Counted from the stretch's first letter, positions 1-40,128 are shown. The stretch is DNA of 64,000 bases from Deltaproteobacteria bacterium (GCA_900299195.1 OMIX01000098.1:92342-156341); one strand, 5' to 3'. Program-made: numbers and translations. Notes: generated by a model from the letters alone, not told the origin.

Positions 1-606
1 ATCAACACAGGGAATCCTTTACGTCCCATTTTTTACCAACAACCTTTTCATTACGATGCCAATTCCCAGTATTTACTGATTCTAGGGGGCAGCCAAGGCT
101 CCAAAGCTATTAACGATGCTATTTTAGATTTTCTACCCCGTTTCTTTACAAAGTTTAAAAAAGCTCAAGTTTTTCACCAAACAGGCCAAAGAGACTTTGA
201 CTCCGTAAAACAAAGAACTACGGGAGAACCCTTCCAAGATCGCTATTGCTGTGCCCCTTTTGTGTCCGACATTCCTGCCCTTTATCAAAAGGCCTCCTTG
301 GTCATAGGCCGTTCGGGGGCTTTAACGGTATCAGAACTCATTCAGATGGGGCGACCTGCGATTTTTGTCCCCTACCCTCGACAGGGACAAAATGACCAGA
401 TTACCAATGCTTATCTCATTTCATCCCATGGAGCAGCTCAAGTGGTGGAGCAAGGAGCGGGTTTTTCTGATCGTCTAGAAAAAACAACTCTAGAAATCTT
501 TGAGCCATCAGTGTTAGAAAGAATGGCTCAAGGCTATTCCGCTCTTCGGTTTGGTAATGCTCTTAAGATGATTGCCGACCAAATGGAGTCGATAGCAAAA
601 AGTTAA
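1..606 (+). CDS. murG: UDP-GlcNAc:undecaprenyl-PP-MurNAc-pentapeptide GlcNAc transferase MurG, C-terminal part (5' end lies outside the window)
   Basis: Frame 1 is open from nt 1. The translation contains LILGGSQGSKAIN and a C-terminal GRSGALTVSEL..PYPRQ glycosyltransferase motif. ORF-track piece 262-606 is the tail of this frame. Confidence 0.8.
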   Translation: MNTGNPLRPIFYQQPFHYDANSQYLLILGGSQGSKAINDAILDFLPRFFTKFKKAQVFHQTGQRDFDSVKQRTTGEPFQDRYCCAPFVSDIPALYQKASLVIGRSGALTVSELIQMGRPAIFVPYPRQGQNDQITNAYLISSHGAAQVVEQGAGFSDRLEKTTLEIFEPSVLERMAQGYSALRFGNALKMIADQMESIAKS

Positions 607-634
607 AAAGCTGAAAATGGGTCGGTTATAAAAA

Positions 635-1993
635 ATGTATAATAAAGTCAGCAGGATACATCTGATTGGTATTGGCGGCATTGGTATGAGTGCTATTGCT
701 GAACTCTTACTCCGAGAGGGTTATCAGGTCTCCGGTTCCGACCTTAAAGCCAATGAAATCGTTCGCGGTTTAATTTCTCGCGGGGTGAAGTTTTATCAAG
801 GACACACCCGCGAAAATGTCTTAGATACCGAACTGGTTGTTTATTCCTCCGCCATCAACGAACAAAATCCTGAAATGGCACAAGCATTAAGCCAACAAAC
901 CCCCGTGATTCCTAGAGCGGAAATGTTAGCTGAACTCATGCGCTTAAAATATGGAATTGCCGTAGCCGGAGCTCACGGAAAAACGACTACCACTTCCATG
1001 ATAGCCACCATTCTCATGGAGGGGAATTTGGACCCTACGATTGTCGTCGGAGGGCGCATGGATAACTTCGGAGGGACAAACGCGAGATTAGGTTCAGGGG
1101 AGTTCATGGTTGTGGAAGCCGATGAAAGCGATGGTTCCTTCAACAAATTAAGTCCCAGCATTGCTGTCGTCACTAATATGGATCGAGAACACATGGACTA
1201 CTACAAAACCATGTCTCGACTAAAAAAAGCTTTTCTTTCTTTTCTCAATAAAGTCCCCTTCTACGGTTTAAGTGTGATTTGTGGGGATGACCCTTACTTG
1301 AGAGTTCTATCTTCTAAAATCGATCGAAGAAAAAAAACCTACGGATTTAAAGCTCATAATCATTATCGGGTTCTAAGCTACCAATCTAACTCGAATGGAA
1401 CTCAAAGTTTGATCCAAATGGATCATGAAAAGTTTGAGTTAAATCTTCAAGTGCCAGGACAGCACAATGTTCTTAATGCACTTGCAGCCCTCATTGTCGC
1501 AGAGGAACTTTCCATACCGCGAGACACTGCTCTTTCAGCCCTTAGCAAGTTTCAAGGGGTTCAAAGAAGATTTCAAAAACGTGGGGAAAAAGATGGCGTT
1601 TTATTCATCGATGATTACGCTCATCATCCAAGTGAAATCCGCGCAACTCTTCGAGCGGCTCGAGAGCGCTTTCGAGGAAAAAAAATAAGAGCGGTATTTC
1701 AACCTCATCGATTCAGCCGTGTGGAAGATCTTCTCGATCAGTTTTCGACCTGCTTTAAAGATTGTGACAGCATTGCGGTCACAGATATTTATGCAGCCAA
1801 TGAAGCGCCAGTTCCCGGGCTAGAATCTTCAGTTTTGGTGGATAATATTTCCCAACTAGGTCATCCCAATGCGTTTTATATTAAAACTCCCTTGGAGGGG
1901 GTTGAACAACTCATTAAAGAGAGCCAACCGGGAGATGTCATTTTGACTCTCGGTGCGGGGGACCTCCCTAATGTCTACAAACAGATATTCTGA
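635..1993 (+). CDS. murC: UDP-N-acetylmuramate--L-alanine ligase
   Basis: 452 aa. N-terminal IHLIGIGGIGMSAIAELL and a Mur ligase P-loop GAHGKTTTTSM. Follows murG as in dcw clusters. Confidence 0.9.
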   Translation: MYNKVSRIHLIGIGGIGMSAIAELLLREGYQVSGSDLKANEIVRGLISRGVKFYQGHTRENVLDTELVVYSSAINEQNPEMAQALSQQTPVIPRAEMLAELMRLKYGIAVAGAHGKTTTTSMIATILMEGNLDPTIVVGGRMDNFGGTNARLGSGEFMVVEADESDGSFNKLSPSIAVVTNMDREHMDYYKTMSRLKKAFLSFLNKVPFYGLSVICGDDPYLRVLSSKIDRRKKTYGFKAHNHYRVLSYQSNSNGTQSLIQMDHEKFELNLQVPGQHNVLNALAALIVAEELSIPRDTALSALSKFQGVQRRFQKRGEKDGVLFIDDYAHHPSEIRATLRAARERFRGKKIRAVFQPHRFSRVEDLLDQFSTCFKDCDSIAVTDIYAANEAPVPGLESSVLVDNISQLGHPNAFYIKTPLEGVEQLIKESQPGDVILTLGAGDLPNVYKQIF

Positions 1994-2930
1994 TCTTTTC
2001 CCCCTCTTTCTACAAAAGTTGGGGGACCGAGCTAAGTTTGATGCTCCTTTAGCGCCTTATGTGGCTTACAACGTTGGCGGACCTGCAGATATTTTAGTTT
2101 TTCCTACCACCGAGGAAGAACTTATTTGGATTGATCAAATCGCAAAACAACATCAAGTGCCTCTGACTGTGATTGGCACGGGAACTAACTTATTGGTTGT
2201 AGATTCTGGAATTCGCGGGATTGCGATTTCATTAGCCCACGCCTTTCAAGAGATTGAACAAATTCCCCATTCACCGGAAAACAGAGTGTGGGTTCGCTGC
2301 GGAGGCGGAGTGTTAAAGCCTCAGCTTCTTGAATGGGCCATCCATAAAGGCCTGACCGGATTAGAGTTTAGCTCAGGTGTTCCAGGTACGATTGGTGGTG
2401 GCATTTACATGAATGCAGGTACCAAATATGGGTGTTATGGTGATATTCTTAAAGAGTTACGGTTTTACGACTTTAAAAACGGGTTCAAACAACTAAAAAG
2501 AGATGAGCTTCATTTTTCGTATCGAGAGTCGGAAGTAAGAAACAGCTTAGTGATTTGGGCAACTTTCGAACTCAAATACGGGAACGCAAAAGATATCAGG
2601 GCCGAAGTCGACCGAATTATTCAGGAACGAGCAGATAAGCAACCCCTCGATTATCCCAGTTGCGGTTCTACTTTTAAAAATGGACCCAACTATTCAAGTG
2701 GAAGGTTAATCGAAAAAGCCGGCCTAAAAGGTCTTAAAGTGGGTGGGGCCGAAATTTCGACAAAACATGCAAACTTTATTTTAAACAAGGGAAATGCAAC
2801 TGCGAAAGACATACTAACATTGATAGACATCATCAAAGTACGCGTACATGAACAATTTGGAGTCAATCTAGAGTGCGAAGTCTGCGTATTGGGAGACGAC
2901 CTTGAAAGAACGAAACCGGAAAAGACTTGA
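1953..2930 (+). CDS. murB: UDP-N-acetylenolpyruvoylglucosamine reductase
   Basis: 325 aa with an FAD-binding MurB-like sequence (GGPADILVFP, GTGTNLLV, CGSTFKN). Overlaps the end of murC. Confidence 0.85.
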   Translation: MRGTSLMSTNRYSDLFPLFLQKLGDRAKFDAPLAPYVAYNVGGPADILVFPTTEEELIWIDQIAKQHQVPLTVIGTGTNLLVVDSGIRGIAISLAHAFQEIEQIPHSPENRVWVRCGGGVLKPQLLEWAIHKGLTGLEFSSGVPGTIGGGIYMNAGTKYGCYGDILKELRFYDFKNGFKQLKRDELHFSYRESEVRNSLVIWATFELKYGNAKDIRAEVDRIIQERADKQPLDYPSCGSTFKNGPNYSSGRLIEKAGLKGLKVGGAEISTKHANFILNKGNATAKDILTLIDIIKVRVHEQFGVNLECEVCVLGDDLERTKPEKT

Positions 2931-4140
2931 GTTCAGCAAAACAGCCTTGGTTTGCAGCGGGGGCGCCACCAAAGCGGCGGCTTTTCATATTGGGGTTTGC
3001 CTAGCTCTCCGGGACAGGGAGTTTTCCTTTGTAGGTGGGCTTTCAGAAACGATCCCACCTGTAGACTGTTATCCTTTTCCTCGTCCGAAATATCATCCTA
3101 GACAAATCGCAACCTATGTAGGTTCAAGTGCTGGTGCCTTGATTGTAACAATGCTAGCGGCTGGAGTGAGTATTGAATCGGTGATCAATTCCTTTGCAGA
3201 AAGTACCAAATTTAAAATCCCTGGAACTTTTCGTAGCATCCCAAGAATCCAATACCGAGACATGTTGTCTTTTAATTGGCCTTCAAAATCCGGTTTATAT
3301 AACCTTTTTAAAAAACGACCCGTTCTTGGAAAGACCTTGGAGTCTTTGATTCTGGGCAATTTAAAAACACCAGGGTTATTCACAACCCAAGGACTCGCTG
3401 ATTATTTAAAAAACTATATTTTACCGACAGAGCACTTTCATGAGTTGAAGCCAGATCTTTTTGTGGTCGGCACTCAATTAGATCACTCAAGAAAAATGGT
3501 CTTTGGTCGATTTGGAACGGAAAAAACTTTTGATGAATATTGTCAATACGCTTCAAATGCAAAAATTTCTGAGGCTGTAGCCGCATCCATGTCTCTTCCT
3601 TTGATCTACTCCCCATTCAAAGTAAAGCATGGAGAGGCAAAAAGTAGGTACTACATCGACGGGGAAATTAGAGAAACTTTATCCACTCATGTAGCTAAAG
3701 AGAACGCCTGCGACCTCATTATTTGCTCCTATACTCATCAACCCTATCACTACAAACAAGAAATTGGGTCTCTCAACCAATATGGGTTACCCTCTATCAT
3801 TATTCAAAGCCTATACCAGGCGATCGAGCAGAAAGTTTACGGAGCCAAAAAGGCTCATGAAAATAAAAAAGCGGCCGTTGAAACGGTACGAGAGTTTTTT
3901 CAACAAAAAAAATACCCAACCGAAGAGCTCGAGGAACTCGTCGCTAAGTTACAGGAGAGAATCGACTTTAATGAAAAGCTTAACTATCTGTTCATTCATC
4001 CTGAACCCAAGGACAGAGAGATGTTTTTCGGAGAGCACTTCACCTTAAAACCTGAGGTCCTTCAAAACGTCGTATCTATCGGTTACAAACGAGCGATGGC
4101 GGAACTAAGAAAGTACGAATTGGTTCCCGTCTCCTACTAG
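2902..4140 (+). CDS. Patatin-like phospholipase
   Basis: Oxyanion motif CSGGATKAAAF, GxSxG nucleophile (VGSSAGAL) and a DGE catalytic Asp region (YIDGEIRE). The predicted start is TTG, overlapping the last 29 nt of murB, so the start is uncertain. Confidence 0.65.
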   Translation: MKERNRKRLEFSKTALVCSGGATKAAAFHIGVCLALRDREFSFVGGLSETIPPVDCYPFPRPKYHPRQIATYVGSSAGALIVTMLAAGVSIESVINSFAESTKFKIPGTFRSIPRIQYRDMLSFNWPSKSGLYNLFKKRPVLGKTLESLILGNLKTPGLFTTQGLADYLKNYILPTEHFHELKPDLFVVGTQLDHSRKMVFGRFGTEKTFDEYCQYASNAKISEAVAASMSLPLIYSPFKVKHGEAKSRYYIDGEIRETLSTHVAKENACDLIICSYTHQPYHYKQEIGSLNQYGLPSIIIQSLYQAIEQKVYGAKKAHENKKAAVETVREFFQQKKYPTEELEELVAKLQERIDFNEKLNYLFIHPEPKDREMFFGEHFTLKPEVLQNVVSIGYKRAMAELRKYELVPVSY

Positions 4141-4269
4141 ACTACTCCATGGCATGATGCTTGCCTTCTAAGCATACCAGCCACCCGGTTTTATCGGGGC
4201 TACAGGCACAAAACTGTATCGGCTTCTAACAATGGTGACAGTTTTTGTCCCCAGACGAAGGATTTCATT

Positions 4270-5550
4270 TTGAGCAAGAGTCATTCGCATTCTAAGAAGA
4301 GACACAACCCTATTTGGCAAAAACAACTTTTTGTAGTTACATTTTTGAGTGCGCTTTTGGTGGTCGGCTTCTCTGTTCCCAATCAATCAAACAGACCCAC
4401 TTCGATCGAACTGATTCGTCAATCGAACCAAAACTTAAAGAACCTGCCTAGCGCAAAAAAAACCTTATCTGATAATCCTTGGGATTATTTTCACCCTACT
4501 TGGGTTAAAGATGCCCCTTGGACACTCGTGGCAACTTCAAATTCCGATGATGATTCAATTTCTTTTTCAAAAGCTGAAGCCTTGATTGAAGACCCCGACA
4601 ACAGAATTGAGAAGGAGTTTTTACCCTCTCAGGAACTCAAAGGCCGAGTCCAATTTTGGATAGATATTTATTCTCGTTTCAGCAGCAAAACACGGGTTAT
4701 CCACGATCGTCGACATCCGGAAGTGATGTTTGGCTACATGGATTTTAGACCCCTTTTTCGGAGTATGCCCTCTCCAGTCGCGGCTGAAATTAGATCGAGC
4801 CAGTTTGAAAAGAGAATACTAAAAGACCTCCGAGCGAGACTTGATGAGGCTGCGGGACTCTCCAAAACGTCTTATCTTTCTCTTGAAGAAAAACAAGCGA
4901 TTCAATCGTTTTTATCTCGAAGCGGAGCCTTAGACAAAGCTAGCTACCAAAAACTTATCAAAAACATTCGAACCCAAACGGGTCAGTCAGATATTTTCTT
5001 GATGGCTCTTCAGCGGTCCAAATATTTGCTGCCACATATTGAAAGTGTTTTCAAACAACAGGGGCTACCTGTGGCACTAGCCCGTATACCTTTTGTAGAA
5101 TCTTCTTTTAATGCTCAGGCTCTTACTAAAATTGGAGCAGTCGGCATTTGGCAATTTACACCGGAAACTGCCAGGGAACTCATCCACGCTGAACAGGAAC
5201 ATTTGTGGTCTGACCCCTTAAGACAGACAAAAAGCGCCGCAAGACTTCTCAAGCTTTATCGTTCGGTTTTGCCTGATTGGGGAACGGCTATTACATCTTA
5301 TAACTCTGGGGTGGGTAGAATTCGAAGGATTGTTGAGAAATACAAAATTTCCAACGTATCAGGTTTAGTTGATTTGAGTCATAACGACACTCTGGGATTT
5401 GCAGGAAAGAACTTTTATAGCGAATTTCTAGCCGCTAACTTTGTTGAAGCCTACAAGGAAAATCTCTTCGGGCAGTTACTACATTCCATGGAGAGCTCGT
5501 TGGTATTCAAAAGTAATGGTGCCACCCCAAAAGAACTCTGTGATCTTTGA
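4270..5550 (+). CDS. Membrane-anchored lytic murein transglycosylase (SLT domain)
   Basis: N-terminal hydrophobic anchor. C-terminal SLT motif ES.FN..A....GA.G..QF.. (VESSFNAQALTKIGAVGIWQFTPETAREL). Confidence 0.6.
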   Translation: MSKSHSHSKKRHNPIWQKQLFVVTFLSALLVVGFSVPNQSNRPTSIELIRQSNQNLKNLPSAKKTLSDNPWDYFHPTWVKDAPWTLVATSNSDDDSISFSKAEALIEDPDNRIEKEFLPSQELKGRVQFWIDIYSRFSSKTRVIHDRRHPEVMFGYMDFRPLFRSMPSPVAAEIRSSQFEKRILKDLRARLDEAAGLSKTSYLSLEEKQAIQSFLSRSGALDKASYQKLIKNIRTQTGQSDIFLMALQRSKYLLPHIESVFKQQGLPVALARIPFVESSFNAQALTKIGAVGIWQFTPETARELIHAEQEHLWSDPLRQTKSAARLLKLYRSVLPDWGTAITSYNSGVGRIRRIVEKYKISNVSGLVDLSHNDTLGFAGKNFYSEFLAANFVEAYKENLFGQLLHSMESSLVFKSNGATPKELCDL

Positions 5551-5564
5551 GCCTACGCACGATT

Positions 5565-8345
5565 TTAATTTACAACTACAGACACTCTTTCCACACCCAC
5601 TCTAACGATGTGACTACGAAAAGCTTTTCCGTTTTCGTCTTTCATTTTCAGAAGGTACTCACCTGGAGCTAGATTAAAAAATGCAAAGCCTGGGTCTGTG
5701 GAAGTGAGAGCGTAAGCGGCATTTGATTTGGGAATCTGACTTAGAGAGAAGGGGCCATGTTCATTTGAAACCGGAAGACCTTTTATATCAAAAAGCTCCA
5801 GCTTCAGTTGCTTTCTGGATTTGTTAAACATGGAGCTGTGTGCACCACCCACAATAACACCAGTGTTTTTCTCGTGTCGAACTCTAGCAATTCGGCTTGC
5901 GCTTTCTTTGATCAAATCTCGTTCCATCATGTAAAAATAATTTTCTTTGATGGAATCTCGAACACTCCAAGGAACGGTAAACCAAGTAGTGGGATACCCT
6001 TCCGCTTGAGCCTCTAAAGTAATAACCCCAGGTGGAAGATCGAGCCCATCCAGCTTAAACTTGCCATTGGACTCGGTAGCTTCTGCTTCTTTGGAGTCAC
6101 CCACCAGCTGAAGAGAACCAAATACAGGCTTACGCAAAAACGGGTCGGTTAGACTCCCCACAAGATCCCGACTTCCGCCTCTTCCTAACTCTACAAAGTA
6201 GCCATAATCAGGTAGTAGTGTAAGAAGCAAAGAATGTTTGTCGATCGAACGAGCAATCGATCTTATGGAGGGTTCCACATTATAAAATCCAAACAATCCG
6301 GTATCTAGGGTTGTTTTCTGGTTAATGTCAGGAAGTGCGCCAAAATAGACAGCCGATCCTTTTCGGTGAGACAAAGACAATGTTTCTCCCGCAAGCGGAC
6401 TGCGAGATTTGATGTCATAGACTCTTCCCATCACCACACTCTTCTCAGCTTGCTGTGGCTTCTTAGTAAAGAACTGGGTTACCACTTCAACTTTATCCTT
6501 CTGGATCAAGTAAAGAGGTGCGTAGGAGGCCGTTGAGAAAATCGGTACAATTTGTCTGGTGGGATAATAACCAGGGGCTCTCGCCTCAACCAGCAATTCA
6601 GAAGCCACTGGAACACTGGGGATTCTAATATTACCCTCTTTGTCGACAGGGAATCTTCCAAGCTCTGGATAACCCACAACAGTCACTTCGCCTGCTTTTA
6701 GGGTTTTGGGGCTTCGATAACTTCCGGGAGCACCGTCGAATAGTGTTAGATTTAGAGGGACAGTCTCACTTAGTCTCTGACTCTCAGAACGCCCCGGAGC
6801 TGTAGAAATAGCTGTGTGACTTACTTCGAACTTTATTTTTTCCTTATAGTTTTCAGAAGAAATGACTTTAGAGTACATCACCTGAGCAACTGGAACTGCA
6901 GACGCCGGAGTATAAACCCCGGCCACTAAACGATATTTTCCCTTCATTCCGGTTCCATCAAACTCAAACTGGTTGCCTGAACCCGGGAACTGGTAGTCCA
7001 TTAAAAAGACTGTGTCCTGGGGGTCCTTACTTCCCACTCGGTTGAGAAAGAGCTCGATATGCCCTTTTTGAGAGTTAAGCCAGTTGATAGCGGAATCGTC
7101 GACTTGAAGCTCTCCATAGAATACTCCGCCGGAAGAGTGGTCAGAGGAATCCTCTTCAGAGGGATCTTTTTGATTATTCACCCCGCGAGATTCGCTGACG
7201 GGTTCTACCGAGTTCACTTGAGTATTCAAAATCTTGGATTTGGCCAATTGAACCGTTTTCTCAAAAGTGTTTTCGAAGTCGTCACCCACAGAAGCAAGCT
7301 TAGGTCTCAATTCCAATTTGGGGGGCGATTCCAACTTCAGACCTCCATCCATCGGTTGACCCAACTCCTGATCAGCTTGCCTTTTTTCCTGCTGCTTTGA
7401 CTCTGCTTCGTTTTGGGTGCGCTCAACTTCTGGAGCTAATTTGGAAATCTGGCTATCCGTAATCTCTTCAAGCACCGAATCGGTTTTAGGTTTTTCGATT
7501 TTAAAGTTGTTTTGAATATCCCTTAATTGAGCAACTTTTGGGATGTCGGTGATCTTTGCCCATGCCATTTTGGCTTTTGGAGATTGAATATCAGAGACCC
7601 GTTTGACCTCACTCTTTTTGATGTTTTGTAAACTCTCTTCAAGATCGGCGAAGGATATCTTTTGAAAGAGACTTTCTCTTACCATCAGAGGTCTTTCTGT
7701 TTCAAATTCAAAATCAGAATGTAAAAGAGAACGGATCTGAACTAAAGCTACTAAAGGGTTGGAGTCGAAATTATCACTTAGTGAATTTTCTGAAAATGAA
7801 GACTTGGCTAATTCATCAAGGGGACTTGGATTATCTAATCCGTCTTGGCTATTCAATTCTGGATTCTCAATATCATCTATAATCCACTGAGGAAGTACGA
7901 TCCGTTTTGATAATTTAAGTTGTTTCTCTGTTTTTTTCTTTAGGCTTTGAGCCTTATTGATTTTAGTTGCTAAAGCCTGCTTACTGTTGACCCTTGAAAG
8001 TTTTAATTCTTTTTTGTCCTCTTGATGAGCTGCGGATAAATTGGATTGGTATTTACCCAAACCTTCGAAAACTCGATGACAGCGGCTCAGCCCTAAACTA
8101 GGTCCCTGACTTACTGGGTTAACTTCTGCTTGTGAGAGGGTTTCATTTTTCTTGAGGTCGATATCTACTTTTTGAGTTTCTAAAGTGGCGGCTTTTAGTT
8201 TCGGAGCGACTCGCTTCGCATGTCTTTTGTGGGGAACCTTTGGGGTCACAGGAGTTTGAAATTTGACTAGAACAAAAGAGCAAAACACGGCCACAACCGC
8301 GATGACTTTAGGAAAAGAAAGCCAGGTTTTGCTTTGCTTGGACAC
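5565..8345 (-). CDS. Large membrane-anchored envelope protein with an acidic low-complexity linker and C-terminal tandem carboxypeptidase-regulatory-like beta-sandwich repeats
   Basis: 926-aa ORF with an N-terminal TM segment (VIAVVAVFCSFVLV) and a long Ser/Asp/Glu/Lys-rich disordered middle. The C-terminal about 450 aa carries repeated G.V.D..G.PL.G..V/TD..G.F.L motifs typical of CarboxypepD_reg or transthyretin-like domains. Confidence 0.5.
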   Translation of the reverse strand: MSKQSKTWLSFPKVIAVVAVFCSFVLVKFQTPVTPKVPHKRHAKRVAPKLKAATLETQKVDIDLKKNETLSQAEVNPVSQGPSLGLSRCHRVFEGLGKYQSNLSAAHQEDKKELKLSRVNSKQALATKINKAQSLKKKTEKQLKLSKRIVLPQWIIDDIENPELNSQDGLDNPSPLDELAKSSFSENSLSDNFDSNPLVALVQIRSLLHSDFEFETERPLMVRESLFQKISFADLEESLQNIKKSEVKRVSDIQSPKAKMAWAKITDIPKVAQLRDIQNNFKIEKPKTDSVLEEITDSQISKLAPEVERTQNEAESKQQEKRQADQELGQPMDGGLKLESPPKLELRPKLASVGDDFENTFEKTVQLAKSKILNTQVNSVEPVSESRGVNNQKDPSEEDSSDHSSGGVFYGELQVDDSAINWLNSQKGHIELFLNRVGSKDPQDTVFLMDYQFPGSGNQFEFDGTGMKGKYRLVAGVYTPASAVPVAQVMYSKVISSENYKEKIKFEVSHTAISTAPGRSESQRLSETVPLNLTLFDGAPGSYRSPKTLKAGEVTVVGYPELGRFPVDKEGNIRIPSVPVASELLVEARAPGYYPTRQIVPIFSTASYAPLYLIQKDKVEVVTQFFTKKPQQAEKSVVMGRVYDIKSRSPLAGETLSLSHRKGSAVYFGALPDINQKTTLDTGLFGFYNVEPSIRSIARSIDKHSLLLTLLPDYGYFVELGRGGSRDLVGSLTDPFLRKPVFGSLQLVGDSKEAEATESNGKFKLDGLDLPPGVITLEAQAEGYPTTWFTVPWSVRDSIKENYFYMMERDLIKESASRIARVRHEKNTGVIVGGAHSSMFNKSRKQLKLELFDIKGLPVSNEHGPFSLSQIPKSNAAYALTSTDPGFAFFNLAPGEYLLKMKDENGKAFRSHIVRVGVERVSVVVN

Positions 8346-8526
8346 CGATTCACATCCCTGTGTTTCAGTCGAGATTAAATTTCTGGATTTTGTCTTAAGA
8401 AGAGAAGAGAGATAAAAAAAGAATTCTTCTTCTTCAGTATATAATTCGGCAGATTTTTTTCAACTCTTTAAATAAAATAAACTATTGATTTTACTGAATA
8501 TTCTGATTATCCTGAGAGTTAAGCCT

Positions 8527-9543
8527 ATGACTACCCAAGCCTCCATTCAAAAATGGATATCAAATTGGCTACTCAGTCAGCGACTATCCACCGATTTTTC
8601 TACCCATTTACTATTGGGAGACGGTTCTTCACGGTCGTTCTACCGAGTTTTAGGAAAAAATCAGAGTTATATTTTAATCTCTGATCCTCAATGGACTCAG
8701 ACTCAAGATTATCCCTCACATCAACAGTTTCTAGAAACTCTTGGACTTCCTGTTCCAAAATTTTTGAATTATGAGGCATCCCTTGGGTTTCTTTTAATGC
8801 AGGATTTAGGAGATGAGCTACTTCAGTTTAGAATAAATTCCGATCCCAAAAGCAAACTCGCTTGGTTAAAAGCCGCGATATCCTTGTTGGCCGATCTTCA
8901 CGGAAAAACTTTCCCGGTGCCTGAAAATCTTCCCGTTACAAGCCGATTTTTTGATGCGGATAAATATTTTTCTGAACTTCAATACACATTAGAATATTTA
9001 CATCAGAAACTTCTCAATGGTTCCCGAACAAGCGATTCTAACCTTAAAGAACTAGCTAACTTCTGCCGCACTATCGCTCAAATTGAGCCTTCTGTATTTT
9101 CCCATCGAGACTACCACTGTCGAAACATGATTATTCAAAACAACCAATTGTGGTTGATTGATTTTCAGGATGCTCGAATGGGGGCACCTCATTATGATGT
9201 CGCTAGTTTGTTATATGATGCTTATGTGCCACTTAATGACATTGACCGACAAGAGCTTTTAAAAACTTACCGAAATCAGATTAGCCAGTATGCGGTTGGG
9301 CAAAAGATTTCCTGGCATATTTTTGAAAGTGATCTGAAGCAGGTGGCTTTTCAGCGCACTCTGAAGGCTGCAGGATCTTTTGCCTCTTTTTTTATTAGAT
9401 TTGGTAAAGTCACCCACTGGCCTTATCTGATCCCCGCACTAAACTCTGCTCTTCATCTTCAGAAGTCGGGTTACGGAGTTAAGTCTAGCGTTATCGACAT
9501 TGAGAAATGGATAGCCTTAATCTCTCAGATAAAGATACAATAA
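8527..9543 (+). CDS. APH-family anomeric sugar kinase (AmgK/NahK-like MurNAc/GlcNAc or hexosamine 1-kinase)
   Basis: Brenner motif HRDYHCRNMII and IDFQDA, characteristic of aminoglycoside-phosphotransferase-fold sugar kinases. Likely start is MTTQ at 8527, downstream of a GAGAG RBS; the ORF-track start is 8485. Confidence 0.5.
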   Translation: MTTQASIQKWISNWLLSQRLSTDFSTHLLLGDGSSRSFYRVLGKNQSYILISDPQWTQTQDYPSHQQFLETLGLPVPKFLNYEASLGFLLMQDLGDELLQFRINSDPKSKLAWLKAAISLLADLHGKTFPVPENLPVTSRFFDADKYFSELQYTLEYLHQKLLNGSRTSDSNLKELANFCRTIAQIEPSVFSHRDYHCRNMIIQNNQLWLIDFQDARMGAPHYDVASLLYDAYVPLNDIDRQELLKTYRNQISQYAVGQKISWHIFESDLKQVAFQRTLKAAGSFASFFIRFGKVTHWPYLIPALNSALHLQKSGYGVKSSVIDIEKWIALISQIKIQ

Positions 9544-9547
9544 CAAA

Positions 9548-10576
9548 ATGTCTTCCTCCGTTGAAACAGCCATGGTTCTAACTGCCGGGTTAGGAACTCG
9601 GTTACACCCTATCACCCATAAAATACCCAAGCCTCTGGTTTCTATTCTTAATATACCCAATATTTTACACGTTCTTTTTTTATTGAAAAAAAGTGGGGTT
9701 TCAAATGTGGTGATGAATCTTTTTCATCTGTCAGAAGAGATGGAAAGTTTTTTCAAAAAGAAACGTTTTTTTAATCTGAATTATACCTTTACTTATGAAA
9801 ATCCTATTCTTGGAACGGGAGGTGGCGTAAAAAACGCTGCTCACCTTTTTGGGGAAAAAACCTTCGTTCTAGCTAACTGCGATTTCGTTTCCAATATTGA
9901 TATCAAAAAATTCATCCTTAAGCATTTTGAAAAAAAGGCTAAGGCCTCGATGGTTTTAATACAAGATGAAACGAGACAACATCTCTACTCTAAGGTTGGG
10001 GTGAACGATCGTGAGCTTTTGGTTAGCTTACCCAAGCTCCAAACTCGTCAGGTTCACCAACATGGAATATTTACTGGAATTCACATTTTAGACCCAGAGG
10101 TCTTAAATCATATTGAAGCTAAGCCCTGCGGAATCAATGATACTCTCTATCCGTATCTCATGAAAAACCATCCAGAATCTGTTTGTGGTTTTATTGAGCC
10201 TTCAGCTTTTTGGTATGACACTGGAGACATCCCCGCATTCTTAGAAACTTCTCACAAACTCTTATTACAGCTTTCACAAAAAGACCCATTTCTTCTTGAG
10301 GTGTTCGCAGCGCTGGGTTTAGAACTAAAAGAATTAGGCCCAGGAATTTGGTCAAACTCCGAACTGACCCTGGATCCTAAACGGATTACAGGACCCGCTC
10401 TCATTGGAGAGAATGTTCAGTTTGGAAAAGGGGTTAGTGTTGGCCCCTTCACTGTTATTGGAGATCATTCTCGAATCGATGATTTAGCTAGCATCGAAAA
10501 TTCAGTGATTCTTCCTAAGTCTTGGGTGAAATCTGGTTCAAGATTAAACCAAACTCTTTTTTTTGAACCCCTTTAA
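9548..10576 (+). CDS. Sugar-1-phosphate nucleotidyltransferase with a C-terminal left-handed beta-helix (MurU or GDP-mannose pyrophosphorylase-like)
   Basis: N-terminal MVLTAGLGTRLHPITHKIPKPLV NTP-transferase signature and a C-terminal hexapeptide-repeat region (GENVQFGKGVSVGPFTVIGDHSRID). Sits 4 nt after the kinase gene. Confidence 0.6.
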   Translation: MSSSVETAMVLTAGLGTRLHPITHKIPKPLVSILNIPNILHVLFLLKKSGVSNVVMNLFHLSEEMESFFKKKRFFNLNYTFTYENPILGTGGGVKNAAHLFGEKTFVLANCDFVSNIDIKKFILKHFEKKAKASMVLIQDETRQHLYSKVGVNDRELLVSLPKLQTRQVHQHGIFTGIHILDPEVLNHIEAKPCGINDTLYPYLMKNHPESVCGFIEPSAFWYDTGDIPAFLETSHKLLLQLSQKDPFLLEVFAALGLELKELGPGIWSNSELTLDPKRITGPALIGENVQFGKGVSVGPFTVIGDHSRIDDLASIENSVILPKSWVKSGSRLNQTLFFEPL

Positions 10577-10638
10577 AAATACTAGGCTTACCGTCTAAAA
10601 AGACACTTTGATAAGCCCAGATCTTAAGTTCTTTATTT

Positions 10639-12285
10639 TTAACGACCAAGTCTGGAAGGGATCTGTCCTCGAGCCGAAGGATTAGCACCCATTCTACCTT
10701 GGATTCCGCTTCTTGCATTTCCTCTAAATCGAGATGGCATAACCCGAGGACCAAATCCAGTCGCACCTCGAGAAAATCTGGGGCCCGCAAAGTTTTGAAA
10801 TGCGTTGCCGACAGTTCCATTGACGTTAGCCACCCCATTTGCAGGGTAGGGGCCACGATTCATCATCATCTGTTGGAACATTTGATTTTGTTGTTGCATA
10901 GTTTGTAGCAAAGCTGCCGTTGTGGGATCAGGCTGAGGAACTGCAGGTCTGCTGGGAATATCGTCGTTAAACCGACTGGGTGTATAGGGCAAAATAGGCT
11001 GAGCCGGTCCATTGTTTGCCAGTGCTCCCATCGGGAAGGGTGGGGGCGGTGGCAACTGGGGCATGGGTTGTGGTTGAAACGGTTGTTGTTGACTAGGTGG
11101 AATGCTCACTGAGGGACTGATCTGCGGACCTTGTTCACTTCGATCAGAATTTCCCCTGGACACATTCGGACGCTGGGCTTGTCCCAAAGCACCTTGCAAG
11201 GCTCTTAATGCCTGAGCACTATCGTTGTTTTGGTCATCGAATTGCCTTCTTAAAAGCTCATCCTGAATTTCTCTATCGCGATCTCTATCATCAGTAGCTC
11301 TTCTAAGAGCATCTAAAGCCGCTTGAAGCTGATTATTTTGGAATCCTCCCAACGAAGGATCCGCTATAGGAACCTGATTGGGGGGAGTAAAAACTCCCGG
11401 CGTTTGAGCTCCGGGCAGTTGAGCCCCTGGATTTCCTCCACCTATGGAGGGATCAACTACAGGTGGAACTGGCTGAGAGTTGTCATTACTTGCTGAATTA
11501 GTAGTCCCTGATTGGGAAGACTGGGTTCCTTGGCTTTCAGTTGCCACCTCATCCAATTTGCACATTTTGGATTCTTCTTTAGAATCTTTGATAGCCTTTC
11601 TTACGCTATCTTCTTCAATCTGTTTTTCGTCCACTACTTTTTTATCCCAAGTGCCCCCTTGAATTATTTTAACTATAGAAACTAACTGGGATGAAAGATC
11701 TTTGTCTGCTTTTTCAAATTCTTTAATTCCTGCTTTAAACTTAGTTGCTTTATCTTCAAGAGCCTTTTGTATTCTGACCACCAAAGTATTGAGCTCTTTT
11801 TCTTTAACGGTTCCCTTGGAATCAAACTTGCCTATCACTTTTTGATCCTTAATGAAATCTAAGAATTGATTTAACGTTTTTAACAACTCTGAAGAAACCT
11901 TGTCCTCCGTCGCTGTTTCATTACATTTAACAAGCTTGTTGGCATAGGCTTTAACAGCTTCTATTTGTTTTTTTAGATCTAAAATTTTATCGGCGTCTAA
12001 CGTTACTGAGGCCGCATTTTCCTCTGCCTCTTTTTTAAATTGATAAACAATCGTAGAGCCTGCTTTTTGCTCCTCTAAAAACTTGATGAGTTCATCAAAG
12101 GTTGGAGAAACCTTTGCTTTGTCTGATGTACTTCGGCCGCCTGTTCCTGATTCAGCATTGTGCTCACCAGACCCATTCGGTTCGTCAGCATAGGATGGAT
12201 TGCCCCCACCCAAACAACAAAGAACGATTAAACTAACCGCCTTAACTTGATACCATTTCATCTTCAACCCCGCTTTCACAAGCAC
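10639..12285 (-). CDS. Secreted or lipoprotein with a coiled-coil N-terminal half and a Pro/Gln-rich, RG-rich low-complexity C-terminal half
   Basis: Signal peptide with a possible lipobox (VLCCLGG), a Lys/Glu-rich helical region, then PPSQQQPFQPQPMPQLPPPPPFP and a C-terminal RG-rich tail (RFRGNARSGIQGRMGANPSARGQIPSRLGR). Confidence 0.5.
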   Translation of the reverse strand: MLVKAGLKMKWYQVKAVSLIVLCCLGGGNPSYADEPNGSGEHNAESGTGGRSTSDKAKVSPTFDELIKFLEEQKAGSTIVYQFKKEAEENAASVTLDADKILDLKKQIEAVKAYANKLVKCNETATEDKVSSELLKTLNQFLDFIKDQKVIGKFDSKGTVKEKELNTLVVRIQKALEDKATKFKAGIKEFEKADKDLSSQLVSIVKIIQGGTWDKKVVDEKQIEEDSVRKAIKDSKEESKMCKLDEVATESQGTQSSQSGTTNSASNDNSQPVPPVVDPSIGGGNPGAQLPGAQTPGVFTPPNQVPIADPSLGGFQNNQLQAALDALRRATDDRDRDREIQDELLRRQFDDQNNDSAQALRALQGALGQAQRPNVSRGNSDRSEQGPQISPSVSIPPSQQQPFQPQPMPQLPPPPPFPMGALANNGPAQPILPYTPSRFNDDIPSRPAVPQPDPTTAALLQTMQQQNQMFQQMMMNRGPYPANGVANVNGTVGNAFQNFAGPRFSRGATGFGPRVMPSRFRGNARSGIQGRMGANPSARGQIPSRLGR

Positions 12286-12816
12286 TTTAAATTCGAGTGA
12301 AGCCTTTCAGCTTCAGCTCTCTCCTCCGCAAAATACACATATGGAACTTATTCACTGCAGGGTTGCAATGAGTGTTCCAGACTTCCGCCTGTGCGAGTAT
12401 GAGCCGTCTTTATGCTGTATTCGAAATGAGGGGTCTAAGTTTTAATGTTTTATTTTTTGACGTTTTTCGGATGCCTAACTTGTAGGTTATTGAAATCTTG
12501 TGTAGATTTTTAAACTCAGTTCTTTAAAATATAGGGTGTCAGTTAATTGAACACTCAAGATTTGAACCTGAGAATACAGGAATTTTTTTAAAAATTTCAA
12601 AGACTCAGAAACCATCACATCACAAGTTCAGTTAACAATTCGTCATGTTTGAAATGTAAATAAGTTGCTATCATTCTTGGGACACAAAAAACCGCCAACC
12701 GAGAGACCCCTAAAACGGCTTTTTTGTCTTATAATATCAGTGGTTTAACGGATTGGGGGCAGGGGGTCATACTCGTTGACTGCCCCCCACCCTTGTGTCA
12801 TAAACAGAGGCCTATT

Positions 12817-29453: not shown

Positions 29454-29858
29454 TTAATTCGTCTTGGTTTGCCTAGTAAGACCGGGAAGGGGACCCAACA
29501 TTTTAGTTTTTCCATCAAACACTGCCCCTTCCTCAATCTGCAATATCGCGGTTTGAACTGTGCCTCGAACCACAGCTGGGGCTTGAATTTCCACTCTCTG
29601 GGTAGAATAAATATCTCCCGAGAAATGTCCTGAAATTACAACAACATCCGCTTCTATTTGACCAGTAACTTGGGCTTCATCACCAATGATCAAAATGTCC
29701 GGAGTAAAAATTTCTCCTTTAAAACTGCCATCTATTCTGGCCGTTCCTTCAAATTGGAGACGTCCCTCAAGATGACACCCTTTTTGAAGAACCACAGTAA
29801 CTTCGTGGCTTACTGAGGGAAGATCAAATGGATCCTGGCGGCGTTGAAACATTTTCAC
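29454..29858 (-). CDS. Bactofilin (DUF583 polymer-forming cytoskeletal protein)
   Basis: Beta-helical bactofilin repeat GTARIDGSFKGEIFTPDILIIGDEAQVTGQIEADVVVISGHFSGDIY. Directly downstream of parB. Confidence 0.75.
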   Translation of the reverse strand: MKMFQRRQDPFDLPSVSHEVTVVLQKGCHLEGRLQFEGTARIDGSFKGEIFTPDILIIGDEAQVTGQIEADVVVISGHFSGDIYSTQRVEIQAPAVVRGTVQTAILQIEEGAVFDGKTKMLGPLPGLTRQTKTN

Positions 29859-30744
29859 CTTTTAGCTCATCTGCTAGACGCATTAAATCATCACGGGTTG
29901 CGTAGGTAAACTGAATGAGCCCTTTATTGTCGTTACCCACAATTTTTACCATTGTCCCATAAATTCTTTTAAGGTCTTCTTCAAGCGCTCTCAAATGGAT
30001 ATTTTCATGGGACGGAGCGGCACCGGGGCCTTTCCCCTTATCTCTGATTACCTCTCCTACTTTACGCTCTGTTTCTCGAACCGAAAGTTTTTTCTTTACT
30101 ATCATCTCGCGAACAGCCAGCTGGTCCTCAGCGGTCTCTAGAGATAACAACGCCCTAGCGTGACCCATGGTAATTTTCCCAGCTGTAATATCCTCTCGAA
30201 TCACTGCTGGTAATTTAAGAAGTCGCAAAGTGTTGGCCACAGTGGCCCTATTTTTACCAACGCGATTAGCTATATCCTCTTGGGAAAGCTGAAACTCATC
30301 CATCAACTGCTGATAAGCAATAGCTTCTTCAATACAATTCAGATCCTCTCTTTGAATGTTTTCGATGATGGCCATTTCAAGAGATGTTTGATCTCCATCA
30401 ATTTCTTTGACGACAACCGGAACTTGTTTCAATCCAGCGCGTTGAGCAGCTCTCCATCGACGCTCACCAGCAATGAGTTCAAAACGCCCATCTTTGTGCC
30501 TTACGATCAAGGGCTGAATAACACCATGAACTTTTACCGATTCAACCAATTCGTCTAAAGCTTCTTTTTGAAAAATTTTTCTCGGTTGGTAGGTGTTCGG
30601 TACTATTTTCTCTATGTCGCAATAGAAAAAATCTTTTTTTAACTGTGCGCCAGGTAAAGTCCCCTCCGGACCTTGGGCCTCTGGAATCAAAGAGGCTAAA
30701 CCTCTACCGAGTGGTTTTTTTCTGTCGAGATCAAGGGTTGCCAT
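29824..30744 (-). CDS. parB: Chromosome partitioning protein ParB (Spo0J)
   Basis: ParB box GERRWRAA and an HTH region; N-terminal LGRGLASLI. Confidence 0.9.
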
Positions 30745-31654
30745 ATTCTATGCCTTTCTGTTCTGTCGGTCCGATATCTGTTAAAGCCTCAACTGGAATC
30801 TCTGGGAGATCTTCTGAGATCGTTTCCTCGGTCAGAGGTTGTTCTGAAAGTTTACTTACATCCACCTTGGGTCCACCTTCTAACCGGCGAATTACTTCCT
30901 GTGCTAAATTCAAATAACTTTGGGAACCCGTAGAGCTAATGTCGTAAAGCAAAACTGGCTTGCCGTGACTTGGACTTTCACTCAATTTCACATTTCTAGG
31001 AATGACCGTATCAAAAACAGTGCTCTTAAAATGATTTTTAACCTCAGTCACTACTTGTCTCGAAAGATTATTCCTTGAATCAAACATCGTAAGAAGAATG
31101 CCAAGCTGCTGTAGCTTTTTATTGAGTCCTTTTCTTATAAGCTCTGCAGTATGAAGAAACTGTCCCAATCCTTCCATTGCATAATATTCACACTGCAACG
31201 GAATCAGATAATAATGAGATGCGGTAAGAGCATTTAAAGTTAGTAGTCCCAACGAAGGGGGACAATCGATAAAAATATAATCAAATTTGGTCCCCTCAGA
31301 TTTTTCTAACTCCTCAAAAGCATTTTTTAGTCTGAGCTCCCGAGCAATCGCTTGAACTAACTCTATCTCTGCCCCACTTAAATTATTATCGGACGGGCAA
31401 ACTTTTAAATATTGAAGTCCTGTTGGATAGATGGCCTCTCTCATCGGAAGCTCATCGATAAGTACGTGATAAATATTTTTATCAGTGAAAAGCCCCTTAT
31501 CGACACCCAACCCACTTGAGGCATTTCCTTGTGGATCTAGATCAACCAACAACACTTTTTTCTCGGCCGCCGCAACTGAAGCCGCGAGATTCACTGCTGT
31601 CGTGGTTTTACCGACACCGCCCTTTTGATTTGCGATTGCTATTATATTTGCCAT
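30731..31654 (-). CDS. parA: Chromosome partitioning ATPase ParA (Soj) with an acidic C-terminal extension of about 50 aa
   Basis: Deviant Walker [16 protein letters not shown]. After the canonical LAQEVIRR end, an extra Glu/Pro-rich tail ([34 protein letters not shown]...) follows. Confidence 0.9.
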
Positions 31655-31812
31655 AAATTTTTCGGAACAAAAATCAGATTATGTGATTGATATTTCTATC
31701 ATATTTTTTTTTACTGTACAAAAATTTTTCCACGAAAAAAAATTTAATTGCTCTTCAGGAATTGGAACGATGAGCCAATCGTCGATACTAAAAGATTTGT
31801 CTACGGGTGGAA

Positions 31813-31830
31813 TTGTTCCACGTGGAACAA
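31813..31830. promoter_or_regulatory. parS: parS site (18-bp perfect palindrome TTGTTCCACGTGGAACAA)
   Basis: Perfect palindrome in the parA-rsmG spacer. The 16-bp core TGTTCCACGTGGAACA differs from the canonical TGTTTCACGTGAAACA at the symmetric positions 5 and 12. Confidence 0.7.
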
Positions 31831-31838
31831 AATTTAGA

Positions 31839-32474
31839 TTACTTTGTTCCACGTGGAACAAAGTTAAAGCTCTCTACTCTTCTAGGGCCACAATCCATGG
31901 GAAGCTCATAATAAAGCTCTCCACATTTTTGAAACTCTTTGGGTGGGACTAAAGCCTCGCTGCTTCCGCCGACATTAACAATGAGGGTGCTCCCTGAATT
32001 CATTCTTTTAGACATAAACTTAAAAAGCTCTTGGGGTGGCAATACAGCCCTAGCCAAAAACAATCCACTCTTTCGCTCCAACGGCATCTCTCCCATCAAT
32101 TTGATGTTTTCCAATTGGAGGGTTGTTAGAACAGCGGACAAGAAGGTTTGTTTTTTTAAACTTCTTTCATACAGAGTGACTTTGGCATCGGGATATCGAA
32201 TGCCATAAATAATTCCAGGAAATCCGGCTCCGGTTCCAAGATCATAAACGGGTCTTGCTGATCGGTAATTTTCAGCGAAGTCACAGATTGAAATACTATC
32301 CACATAGTGGCTGGCGAAGGATTTATCGATGCTTTTTTTAGAAACCAAAGCCATTCTTTCATTCCAGTTTTTTAAAACTGAAAAATGTTTTTCGTAAAGG
32401 CTGAGTTCTGTCTCGGTTAGGTTCTTAAGACACTCGAGTTGGTTCTGATGGTTTTTAAAATGCTCTTTCAACAT
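31839..32474 (-). CDS. rsmG: 16S rRNA (guanine527-N7)-methyltransferase
   Basis: 211 aa SAM-MTase with GidB-family motifs (YDLGTGAGFPGI). Sits in the conserved mnmG-rsmG-parA-parB array. Confidence 0.85.
   Translation of the reverse strand: MLKEHFKNHQNQLECLKNLTETELSLYEKHFSVLKNWNERMALVSKKSIDKSFASHYVDSISICDFAENYRSARPVYDLGTGAGFPGIIYGIRYPDAKVTLYERSLKKQTFLSAVLTTLQLENIKLMGEMPLERKSGLFLARAVLPPQELFKFMSKRMNSGSTLIVNVGGSSEALVPPKEFQKCGELYYELPMDCGPRRVESFNFVPRGTK
31843..31862. promoter_or_regulatory. parS: parS site (20-bp perfect palindrome TTTGTTCCACGTGGAACAAA)
   Basis: Second copy, 31 bp from the first, overlapping the last codons of rsmG. Confidence 0.7.
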
Positions 32475-34372: not shown

Positions 34373-34374
34373 TT

Positions 34375-35739: not shown

Positions 35740-35741
35740 AG

Positions 35742-37361: not shown

Positions 37362-37363
37362 AT

Positions 37364-37621
37364 TTACCCTACCTTATCGACTACTGGGTCACTTCCAAAG
37401 GACCCCATGGGATGACACTTTAAAAGTCTCTTTATACTCAGCAAACTTCCAACGACAAGCCCATGTTTTTTGAGAGCAAGAGAACTGTACTGGGAGCAAG
37501 TGGGTTCGAACCGACAACAAGCCCCAAAAGAAAAAAATTGATGAAATCCCCGAACAAAAACTACCACCATTTGCGGCCAGTTTTTTAAGAGCCTATTCAC
37601 TTTTTTTGTTCTCCTCAACAA
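37364..37621 (-). CDS. yidD: Membrane protein insertion efficiency factor YidD
   Basis: 85 aa with the [10 protein letters not shown] motif. Confidence 0.8.
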
Positions 37622-37976: not shown

Positions 37977-37987
37977 ACCAATGAAAA

Positions 37988-39734: not shown

Positions 39735-39840
39735 TTTTGGACTTGGTTTCTCTTTTTGCTTTGGGTCATAGCAAAAATGAAATTAAAAAGGCCAGGATCC
39801 TGTTTTTTTCTCTAAGTTGATATACGTTACTGTTGCCATA

Positions 39841-39998: not shown

Positions 39999-40052
39999 AC
40001 AGGATCGACAATGTTATTGATGACTTAACTGAGTTGTTAACATATTAACAAT

Positions 40053-40108: not shown

Positions 40109-40128
40109 ACGGGGATTTCGGGGGATTC

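Follow-up and report, generated by a model that had tools for sequence, protein, structure and literature searches.

The stretch of DNA analysed here (the window: 64,000 nucleotides (nt) from Deltaproteobacteria bacterium, GCA_900299195.1 OMIX01000098.1:92342-156341) carries two adjacent genes whose products resemble the AmgK kinase and the MurU nucleotidyltransferase of cell-wall sugar recycling. A preliminary description of the sequence had reported an APH-fold kinase and a nucleoside triphosphate (NTP) transferase 4 nt apart, with HRDxxxxN and IDFQDA signatures in the kinase. Both genes were confirmed as + strand open reading frames (ORFs), and both signatures were located. The features of the pair are as follows (aa, amino acids; LbH, left-handed beta-helix).

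8527..9543, + strand: gene for an AmgK-like anomeric sugar kinase, 338 aa, APH/protein-kinase-like fold
8617..8646, + strand: N-terminal kinase motif GDGSSRSFYR (family GDxSxRxYxR), a probable nucleotide/phosphate-binding loop
9103..9126, + strand: kinase catalytic loop HRDYHCRN, residues 193-200, with predicted catalytic Asp195 and Asn200
9157..9174, + strand: kinase metal-binding motif IDFQDA, residues 211-216, counterpart of the kinase DFG
9352..9381, + strand: C-terminal kinase motif QRTLKAAGSF (family QRxxKxxGxF), from alignment with relatives
9544..9547, + strand: 4-nt spacer CAAA between the kinase stop codon (TAA, 9541-9543) and the transferase ATG (9548)
9548..10576, + strand: gene for a long-form sugar-1-phosphate nucleotidyltransferase, 342 aa, MurU/GMPP-like catalytic domain plus C-terminal LbH
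9587..9634, + strand: transferase NTP-binding signature GLGTRLHPITHKIPKP (GxGxR...PK), residues 14-29, from alignment A4
9809..9826, + strand: transferase LGTGGG loop, residues 88-93, the base/sugar-contacting loop of the fold, in a GMPP-like state
10328..10573, + strand: transferase C-terminal LbH domain, approximately residues 261-342, from Hexapep and GMPPB_C matches and DSSP strands

The longest kinase ORF opens at a TTG codon and spans positions 8485-9543 (+). The start is nevertheless most likely ATG 8527, since homologues align from this codon and gene callers chose it on each of the four independent freshwater-metagenome contigs that encode the identical kinase protein. The 4-nt spacer implies that the two genes are co-transcribed and possibly translationally coupled; in related loci they usually overlap by 4 nt or sit no more than 20 nt apart. 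A scan for promoters and terminators revealed no convincing + strand promoter 5' of the kinase gene and no terminator 3' of the transferase gene, promoter counts being near the shuffled expectation. The pair and its surroundings are syntenic in 12 related loci from metagenome-assembled genomes (MAGs), L001-L012, most of them labelled Bdellovibrionota or "delta proteobacterium" and referred to below, with the window, as the window clade. Identity to the window sequences is 58-67% for murC/murB, 45-52% for the kinase and 34-48% for the transferase. Horizontal transfer of the pair, considered in view of its slightly lower GC content (0.39 versus about 0.43), was rejected because the synteny kept across the clade outweighs this difference.

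The kinase matches the Pfam APH family (71.6 bits, E=1e-19) and also gives generic EcKL and choline-kinase matches. Among the 18,950 NCBIfam models scanned, AmgK is its sole substantial match, with 84.9 bits over residues 9-297 for model NF045759 and 63.3 bits for a second AmgK model, NF045698. The next family, Bud32, scores 30 bits, followed by CotS, APH(3') and thiamine kinase (all at or below 30); the APH(3') model itself gives 24 bits and thrB_alt, of the homoserine kinase type, has no match. The only strong sequence match in the PDB is 3csv (E=5e-24, residues 22-304), with generic APH-fold kinases trailing by five orders of magnitude. The same entry is the top fold match of the AlphaFold model (template modelling (TM) score 0.76-0.80; predicted local distance difference test (pLDDT) score of the model 95.5), methylthioribose kinase and APH(2'') structures being among the weaker fold matches. 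Used as a query, the 3csv sequence retrieves proteobacterial and Bacteroidota loci of the AmgK type, in which the kinase gene is followed by a short transferase gene. The preliminary description had likened the kinase to AmgK and NahK alike. The AmgK likeness was borne out by these scores; a NahK-type identity was rejected, as no NahK chain appears among the PDB sequence matches (E<=0.01) or the top 50 Foldseek hits. An aminoglycoside or homoserine kinase identity, which the same description had named as the outcome that would tell against a sugar kinase, was likewise discarded, since neither type of model exceeds 24 bits on the window kinase.

Alignment A2 shows no variation at residues R194, D195, R199, N200, D212, F213 and Q214 of the kinase. 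Across the window clade, canonical AmgK sequences and the AnmK-linked kinases described below, R36 and R40 never vary and D32 and S34 hardly do. The roles of residues of the Asp195/Asn200/Asp212 type follow from established knowledge of the APH and eukaryotic protein kinase folds. Outside these generic kinase motifs, the window protein keeps the family motifs GDxSxRxYxR, EDLGD, YDxxSL and QRxxKxxGxF, the last of which is common to the Acinetobacter, Legionella and Xanthomonas sequences and to 3csv. All 20 columns that are invariant among canonical sequences (Acinetobacter, Legionella, Xanthomonas, Bacteroides) and context-supported relatives are retained in the window kinase. Of the 55 columns conserved to 80% or more in 73 relatives from outside the window clade, that clade retains 47; the eight departures are mostly conservative, yet replacements of Tyr by His and by Leu are among them. 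Kinase homologues of 50-55% identity bear the name "N-acetylmuramate 1-kinase" in the records of the Joint Genome Institute. Taken together, the profile scores, motifs and predicted fold support a place for the kinase in the AmgK-like branch of APH-fold proteins. During this comparison, the AmgK-like kinase of Bacteroides finegoldii (L088:3444-4874; 476 aa with a C-terminal extension) was found recorded as "RNase adapter RapZ", probably a misannotation driven by the fusion.

The transferase matches Pfam NTP_transferase (71.4 bits, E=1e-19) and GMPPB_C, and Hexapep at residues 284-310 (27.4 bits). Its AlphaFold model (pLDDT 91.3) contains a beta-rich C-terminal domain, with DSSP strands from about residue 261, so that the C-terminal LbH of the preliminary description is upheld. 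At full length, the best NCBIfam score is that of man1P_GTase_Rv (NF052502; 116 bits, cut-off 440), followed by MurU (NF045761; 104 bits, cut-off 250), whose match over residues 8-226 covers profile positions 3-215 of 226, and by Arch_glmU (90 bits); GlmU models reach 44 bits at most. The best PDB sequence match is tlr0611 (8x7s; "UTP-glucose-1-phosphate uridylyltransferase"; E=5e-28), and full-length Foldseek hits comprise the same structure (TM 0.81), human GMPPB (7d72; 0.77) and Arabidopsis VTC1 (7x8j; 0.71). The MurU structures 4y7u and 8hhd match the N-terminal domain with TM scores of 0.82-0.86. The earlier remark that the transferase is more like GMPP than like the short MurU is thus accurate for the full-length protein. 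When the LbH is removed, however, MurU becomes the top curated family for the catalytic domain in four out of four window-clade proteins (105, 97, 120 and 140 bits, compared with 104, 95, 87 and 113 bits for the GMPP model), the window protein itself (105 versus 104) being a tie. In alignment A4, no sequence departs from G14, R18, P21, T23 and K28.

When scanned by itself against NCBIfam, the LbH tail matched no family, acetyltransferases included. The tail is short (about 80 residues) and lacks an acetyltransferase match; judged from the analogous domains of GMPPB, VTC1 and tlr0611, it is probably an oligomerisation or regulatory module rather than a domain for acetyl transfer.

The association of the two genes was surveyed in a scan with one genome per species, which yielded 80 loci. 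A transferase gene lies directly beside the kinase gene in about 59 of these, spread over at least seven phyla and usually with a 4-nt overlap, and in 11 of the 12 loci of the window clade. Lineages with the pair include Bdellovibrionota, Leptospirales, Desulfomonilaceae, Vicinamibacteria, Acidimicrobiia and Planctomycetota, among others. The transferase gene is downstream of the kinase gene in Bdellovibrionota, Leptospirales and Planctomycetota, and upstream of it in Desulfomonilaceae, Thermodesulfobacteriota, Vicinamibacteria and Acidimicrobiia. Most partners measure 310-350 aa rather than about 230 aa, and several show hexapeptide/LbH signals; the long architecture is therefore the common state outside Proteobacteria and Bacteroidota, with short partners in some Oligoflexia and at one Leptospirales locus. 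The canonical AmgK-MurU loci used for comparison came in part from plasmid-collection records, namely Acinetobacter, Neisseria, Aeromonas and Sinorhizobium replicons of 2-4 Mb that are evidently chromosomes.

Several other features of these loci were recorded. An apparent transferase-kinase fusion in L048 (a 697-aa ORF) was dismissed as an ORF-calling artefact of a high-GC genome, its two matches lying in different frames. In Nitrospinota (L014, L016, L018, L019, L029, L045, L063 and L013), an AmgK-like kinase gene without an adjacent transferase gene is followed by a gene for an LptF/LptG permease, a neighbour that recalls the lptD gene near the Legionella pair (L086). In L007 (9023-10138) a gene for an AI-2E family transporter replaces the transferase gene directly downstream of a kinase gene of the window-clade type, and in Xanthomonas (L087:6031-7200) such a transporter gene lies two genes from murU; these neighbours may be coincidental or may hint at a sugar transporter. 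In 14 Bdellovibrio-type loci, a convergent gene directly 3' of the transferase gene encodes a conserved protein that lacks a Pfam match and measures about 320-345 aa (e.g., L056:9991-10956, - strand); a sigma-54 activator and an ATP-binding cassette (ABC) exporter recur upstream in 17-20 loci.

In lineages other than the window clade, the pair is found next to genes for the metabolism of N-acetylmuramic acid (MurNAc). An AnmK gene (Pfam, 276 bits) is its immediate neighbour in 14 loci from Bdellovibrionota/Oligoflexia, directly downstream on the same strand in four (L022, L037, L042, L052) and convergent in ten (L023, L025, L031, L036, L047, L050, L055, L058, L070, L072). No report of this linkage was found in the literature searched. 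The AnmK-linked kinases form groups that are just 33-37% identical to one another, which indicates that the linkage is old. Their partner transferases are mostly 311-347 aa long (four are 270-280 aa) and score 66-81 bits with MurU, less than the window protein. At two further loci the gene directly after the pair encodes a NamZ exo-beta-N-acetylmuramidase: L053 (Bdellovibrionota; 8095-9288) and L033, a Leptospiraceae MAG. The latter (1-12556) carries on one strand ftsW, murG, murC, an unassigned gene, ftsA, ftsZ, the kinase gene, the gene for a 308-aa transferase, namZ and a sodium:solute symporter gene, so that the pair lies directly after ftsZ, at the end of the division and cell wall (dcw) cluster. 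The symporter is a candidate MurNAc importer. The AnmK, NamZ and dcw contexts support a role of long-form partners in the conversion of MurNAc to UDP-MurNAc. They also bear on the motif states of the window transferase, for AnmK-linked Bdellovibrionota partners carry the same GLGTRL/LGTGGG-type states. Canonical MurU states may consequently define only a proteobacterial subgroup, and neither GMPP-like states nor a long form argues against MurNAc, given that AnmK- and NamZ-linked partners elsewhere show both. These comparisons show GMPP-like states and an LbH tail to be compatible with a MurU-like role.

On these grounds the pair is proposed to make a nucleotide-activated cell-wall sugar through a two-step salvage of the AmgK-MurU type, probably converting MurNAc to UDP-MurNAc, a reading that we regard as about evenly poised. 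The two genes would form one operon for the two steps. In the first step, the kinase would transfer phosphate from ATP to the C1 (anomeric) hydroxyl of a free amino sugar, most likely MurNAc and possibly also N-acetylglucosamine (GlcNAc), with Asp195 of HRDYHCRN as the catalytic base and Asn200 and Asp212 holding Mg2+. In the second, the transferase would couple the resulting alpha-1-phosphate to an NTP (UTP being the likeliest), releasing pyrophosphate and yielding UDP-MurNAc; the LbH tail would serve oligomerisation or regulation. The product could be used directly by MurC, whose gene is located 6.5 kb upstream, bypassing MurA and MurB, which would remain as the de novo route (murB being present in the window). 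The analysis shows the folds, the motifs, the family proximity, the conserved pairing and the MurNAc-related context in other lineages; the substrate, the nucleotide and the physiological source of the sugar are inferred.

A number of results weigh against this reading. The kinase falls well under the curated equivalog cut-offs for AmgK (84.9 versus 550 bits, and 63.3 versus 500), although every non-proteobacterial relative tested also scores below the cut-off (90-159 bits). It is 26-29% identical to the AnmK-linked kinases and 21-27% identical to canonical sequences, about equally far from all other groups (21-29%). Low identity alone is not disqualifying, inasmuch as Caulobacter AmgK has experimentally retained its function at 30% identity to the Pseudomonas enzyme (PMC13046382). 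The window-clade kinases share 19 private conserved residues, some changing charge and one being a His in place of the Tyr found in 70 of 73 relatives. On the side of the transferase, the MurU scores of the window protein (104-105 bits) and of window-clade members (97-140) all remain under the cut-off of 250, and the full-length protein is closest to GMPP/CugP-type enzymes by both sequence and structure. It has GLGTRL and LGTGGG where proteobacterial MurU has GxG(E/N)R(M/L) and L(E/D)TGGG, and with 342 aa and an LbH it is not a "minimal" single-domain enzyme like the reference MurU proteins (218-249 aa). Finally, tblastn searches of the 64-kb window with AnmK and NamZ found neither, and the 10 kb preceding the window hold genes for DnaG, RpoD, RNase H, a two-component pair, FtsW and MurG; no further recycling gene turned up in either stretch. 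Nor were anmK and namZ detected in any of the 12 loci L001-L012, mupP being outside these searches.

A phylogeny of both proteins, which the preliminary description had proposed as a check, gave an answer in part. Neighbour-joining (NJ) trees with 200 bootstraps recovered the window clade as monophyletic (0.99 for the kinase and 0.95 for the transferase), whereas its placement relative to AnmK-linked Bdellovibrionota, canonical enzymes and GMPPB/tlr0611 was supported at 0.38 or less, a further point against the MurNAc assignment. Orthology of the window clade to the AnmK-linked group is hence not established. Since the clade is a separate branch of uncertain placement, with no anmK or namZ nearby, the substrate proposed for it stays provisional, and the caution on this point in the preliminary description was well placed.

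A wider proposal is that the LbH-bearing partners are true "long-form MurU" enzymes across Bdellovibrionota, Leptospirales, Desulfomonilaceae, Vicinamibacteria and other lineages, that the minimal proteobacterial MurU is a truncated derivative, and that the shunt is far wider than annotated. We advance this tentatively, judging it somewhat short of an even prospect. If it is true, the shunt past MurA and MurB, together with potential intrinsic fosfomycin tolerance and labelling by MurNAc probes, would extend beyond what annotation suggests because databases name these transferases mannose-1-phosphate guanylyltransferases.

Unlikely, but to be taken seriously, is the possibility that the pair salvages another hexose or N-acetylhexosamine (HexNAc), such as GlcNAc, N-acetylgalactosamine (GalNAc), mannose or glucose, to a GDP- or UDP-sugar for lipopolysaccharide, capsule or glycoprotein. 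It would account for the best full-length matches of the transferase (tlr0611/8x7s, GMPPB, VTC1 and man1P_GTase_Rv at 116 bits), for its GMPP-like rather than MurU-like motif states and for the names "mannose-1-phosphate guanylyltransferase" and "NDP-sugar synthase" that close homologues bear in source records. The private conserved residues of the window-clade kinases and the lack of an anmK or namZ neighbour at their loci are also in keeping with it, and AmgK itself phosphorylates GlcNAc as well (PMC5371407). The window clade may, in this case, represent a paralogue shifted to another sugar. However, no curated family other than AmgK exceeds 30 bits for the kinase; once the LbH is removed, each of the four clade members tested scores at least as high with MurU as with GMPP; and the same GMPP-like states and long architecture occur in partners linked to AnmK or NamZ elsewhere. 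The transferase clade, moreover, does not group with GMPPB and 8x7s (bootstrap 0.13 for such a grouping, in NJ trees with weak deep nodes), and no phosphomannomutase/isomerase gene adjoins the pair, the nearest gene of the PGM/PMM family being 41 kb away.

It is improbable that the pair acts on GlcNAc besides or instead of MurNAc, as a broad HexNAc kinase and a UDP-HexNAc pyrophosphorylase feeding both UDP-GlcNAc and UDP-MurNAc. In its favour, AmgK of Pseudomonas phosphorylates both MurNAc and GlcNAc (PMC5371407), archaeal and GlmU-type sugar-1-phosphate nucleotidyltransferases are among the matches of the long transferase (Arch_glmU at 90 bits), and a gene for a lytic transglycosylase with an SLT domain is syntenic upstream; against this, the GlmU models themselves score low (44 bits or less) and the LbH tail, too short for a GlmU-type acetyltransferase, matches no family alone. 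Very remote is the suggestion that the adjacency is incidental and the kinase of the aminoglycoside, choline, homoserine or methylthioribose type, to which the generic APH, EcKL and choline-kinase Pfam matches and the weaker methylthioribose kinase and APH(2'') fold hits might point, for it is countered by the recurrence of the pair at about 59 of 80 loci in at least seven phyla with stop and start codons usually overlapping, by the lead of more than 50 bits that AmgK models hold over every other kinase family, and by the APH(3') (24 bits) and thrB_alt (no match) results.

The preliminary description had stressed the closeness of the pair to the mur genes, and two context features matter here.

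635..2930, + strand: murC and murB, a separate transcription unit (TIGR01082, 534 bits; NF010480, 319 bits; both above cut-off)
4270..5550, + strand: gene for an SLT-domain lytic transglycosylase, MltD-like (Pfam SLT, 59.6 bits), syntenic in the window's clade

The murC (635-1993) and murB (1953-2930) genes lie on the + strand, with ftsW and murG just upstream, murG being cut by the start of the window. MurB belongs to the de novo pathway of UDP-MurNAc, and MurC is the first consumer of this compound; SLT lytic transglycosylases are the class of enzymes that release anhydro-muropeptides. The presence of the mur genes near the pair was thus confirmed, at 5.6 kb from the end of murB to the start of the kinase gene. 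A patatin-like gene, the SLT lytic transglycosylase gene and an opposite-strand gene for a 926-aa protein intervene, so that the pair forms a small transcription unit of its own, separate from the mur genes. Synteny with murC/murB is weak functional evidence, as it belongs to a single clade. The sole basis for calling the host "predatory" is that related MAGs are labelled Bdellovibrionota.

Among the neighbours themselves, the patatin-like phospholipase gene (2902-4140, +; 412 aa) overlaps the end of murB, at a place where ftsQ/ftsA usually follow, and the local order is ftsW-murG-murC-murB-patatin with no ftsQAZ. Its product is 65-69% identical across the clade, more than the kinase or the transferase, and 39% identical in L057. 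The 926-aa protein (5565-8345, -) looks secreted and has a hydrophobic segment at its N-terminus as well as a CarboxypepD_reg-like domain; it is clade-restricted and 27-42% identical in 10 of L001-L012. Downstream of the pair, a gene at 10639-12285 (-) encodes a 548-aa low-complexity protein rich in Pro, Gln and Asn, with no family match and likewise clade-restricted. A sequence match to it was found only in L012 (30%); genes of like size and orientation hold both flanking positions across L001-L012.

Farther away, the rest of the window is housekeeping DNA and takes in the region of a chromosomal replication origin (29824-46274), with a change in the sign of the GC skew near 40 kb. The dnaA (38391-39734), dnaN, gyrB and gyrA genes are on the + strand (38.4-46.3 kb) and parB, parA, gidB, gidA and yidC on the - strand; the intergenic gaps at 37.98-38.39 kb and 39.73-40.13 kb are candidate oriC sites. 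A segment at 51438-55531 (-) carries a mutase gene of the PGM/PMM family, possibly glmM, followed by three tandem paralogues of the SurA-like/peptidyl-prolyl isomerase (PPIase) type.

Should the pair make UDP-MurNAc, the MurU shunt would reach a deep, uncultured Bdellovibrionota-like lineage as well as many non-proteobacterial phyla whose second enzyme is mis-annotated as a GDP-mannose pyrophosphorylase, and the "minimal" MurU would be just one architectural solution for the UDP-MurNAc step. The enzymes would then be available as a set for the metabolic labelling of peptidoglycan by way of MurNAc probes, and intrinsic fosfomycin tolerance could be predicted from genome sequences. In predatory Bdellovibrionota, prey-derived MurNAc could, speculatively, feed directly into the wall of the predator, and the direct reuse of prey muramic acid would become a testable question. 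Such scavenging and the fosfomycin tolerance raised in the preliminary description are both speculative. If the substrate were another sugar, the pair would define a new salvage route based on an anomeric kinase. As matters stand, automated pipelines call kinases of 50-55% identity "N-acetylmuramate 1-kinase" and the partner "mannose-1-phosphate guanylyltransferase" or "NDP-sugar synthase", which splits one operon between two pathways. A literature search found no paper linking AmgK/MurU to Bdellovibrio or describing a long-form MurU. The advance is at the level of annotation and is not a new principle. The pair most likely represents a diverged form of an established recycling shortcut, its second enzyme carrying a tail domain that the textbook enzyme does not have.

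Of the known systems, NahK, the N-acetylhexosamine 1-kinase of Bifidobacterium, is also an anomeric kinase of the APH fold; to our knowledge, it is not partnered with an adjacent NTP_transferase of the window type. The closest solved structure to the window kinase, 3csv, is a structural-genomics entry for an uncharacterised alphaproteobacterial protein (Silicibacter sp. TM1040) recorded as a "putative aminoglycoside phosphotransferase". Its identity to the window kinase is about 27%, it contains no ligand, and the proteobacterial lineage to which it belongs has short MurU partners.

Enzymes of the GMPP/CugP type (GMPPB 7d72, VTC1 7x8j, tlr0611 8x7s) have the same two domains as the window transferase, a Rossmann-like NTP_transferase domain and a short LbH (GMPPB_C), and are its best full-length matches, with TM scores of 0.7-0.8 and 23-29% identity. 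Yet the window protein reaches only 116 bits against a family cut-off of 440 and has SLPK in place of the (F/V)EKP motif. Genes of its type are always paired with an AmgK-like kinase gene and not with phosphomannomutase/isomerase genes, and bootstrapped trees do not group the window clade with GMPPB and 8x7s. The pair thus resembles GMPP/CugP in architecture, and not in score, partner genes or tree position.

The AmgK-MurU shunt of Pseudomonas putida and Pseudomonas aeruginosa shows the same tight order of kinase then transferase, as do the Bacteroides, Xanthomonas, Legionella and Acinetobacter loci (L085-L088), in which the short Xanthomonas transferase is named murU by the Prokaryotic Genome Annotation Pipeline (PGAP) and the Legionella pair sits beside lptD. 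AmgK/MurU enzymes of Tannerella forsythia have been used heterologously. The shunt has also been validated in Caulobacter crescentus (PMC13046382). The window kinase has the GDxSxRxYxR, HRDxHxRN, IDFQD and QRxxKxxGxF motifs in common with these systems, and the MurU profile is covered from end to end (3-215 of 226) by the catalytic domain of the window transferase, which also matches the MurU structures. In contrast, the kinases share just 21-27% identity and the transferases 25-27%, both window proteins score nowhere near the equivalog cut-offs, the window transferase has 342 aa and an LbH compared with 218-249 aa in MurU, with GLGTRL/LGTGGG instead of GxG(E/N)R(M/L)/L(E/D)TGGG, and the window pair is linked to neither lptD nor anmK. 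The window pair would therefore seem to work like AmgK-MurU, yet lies outside strict membership of that system by its score cut-offs, its non-minimal architecture and its departure from the canonical MurU motif states.

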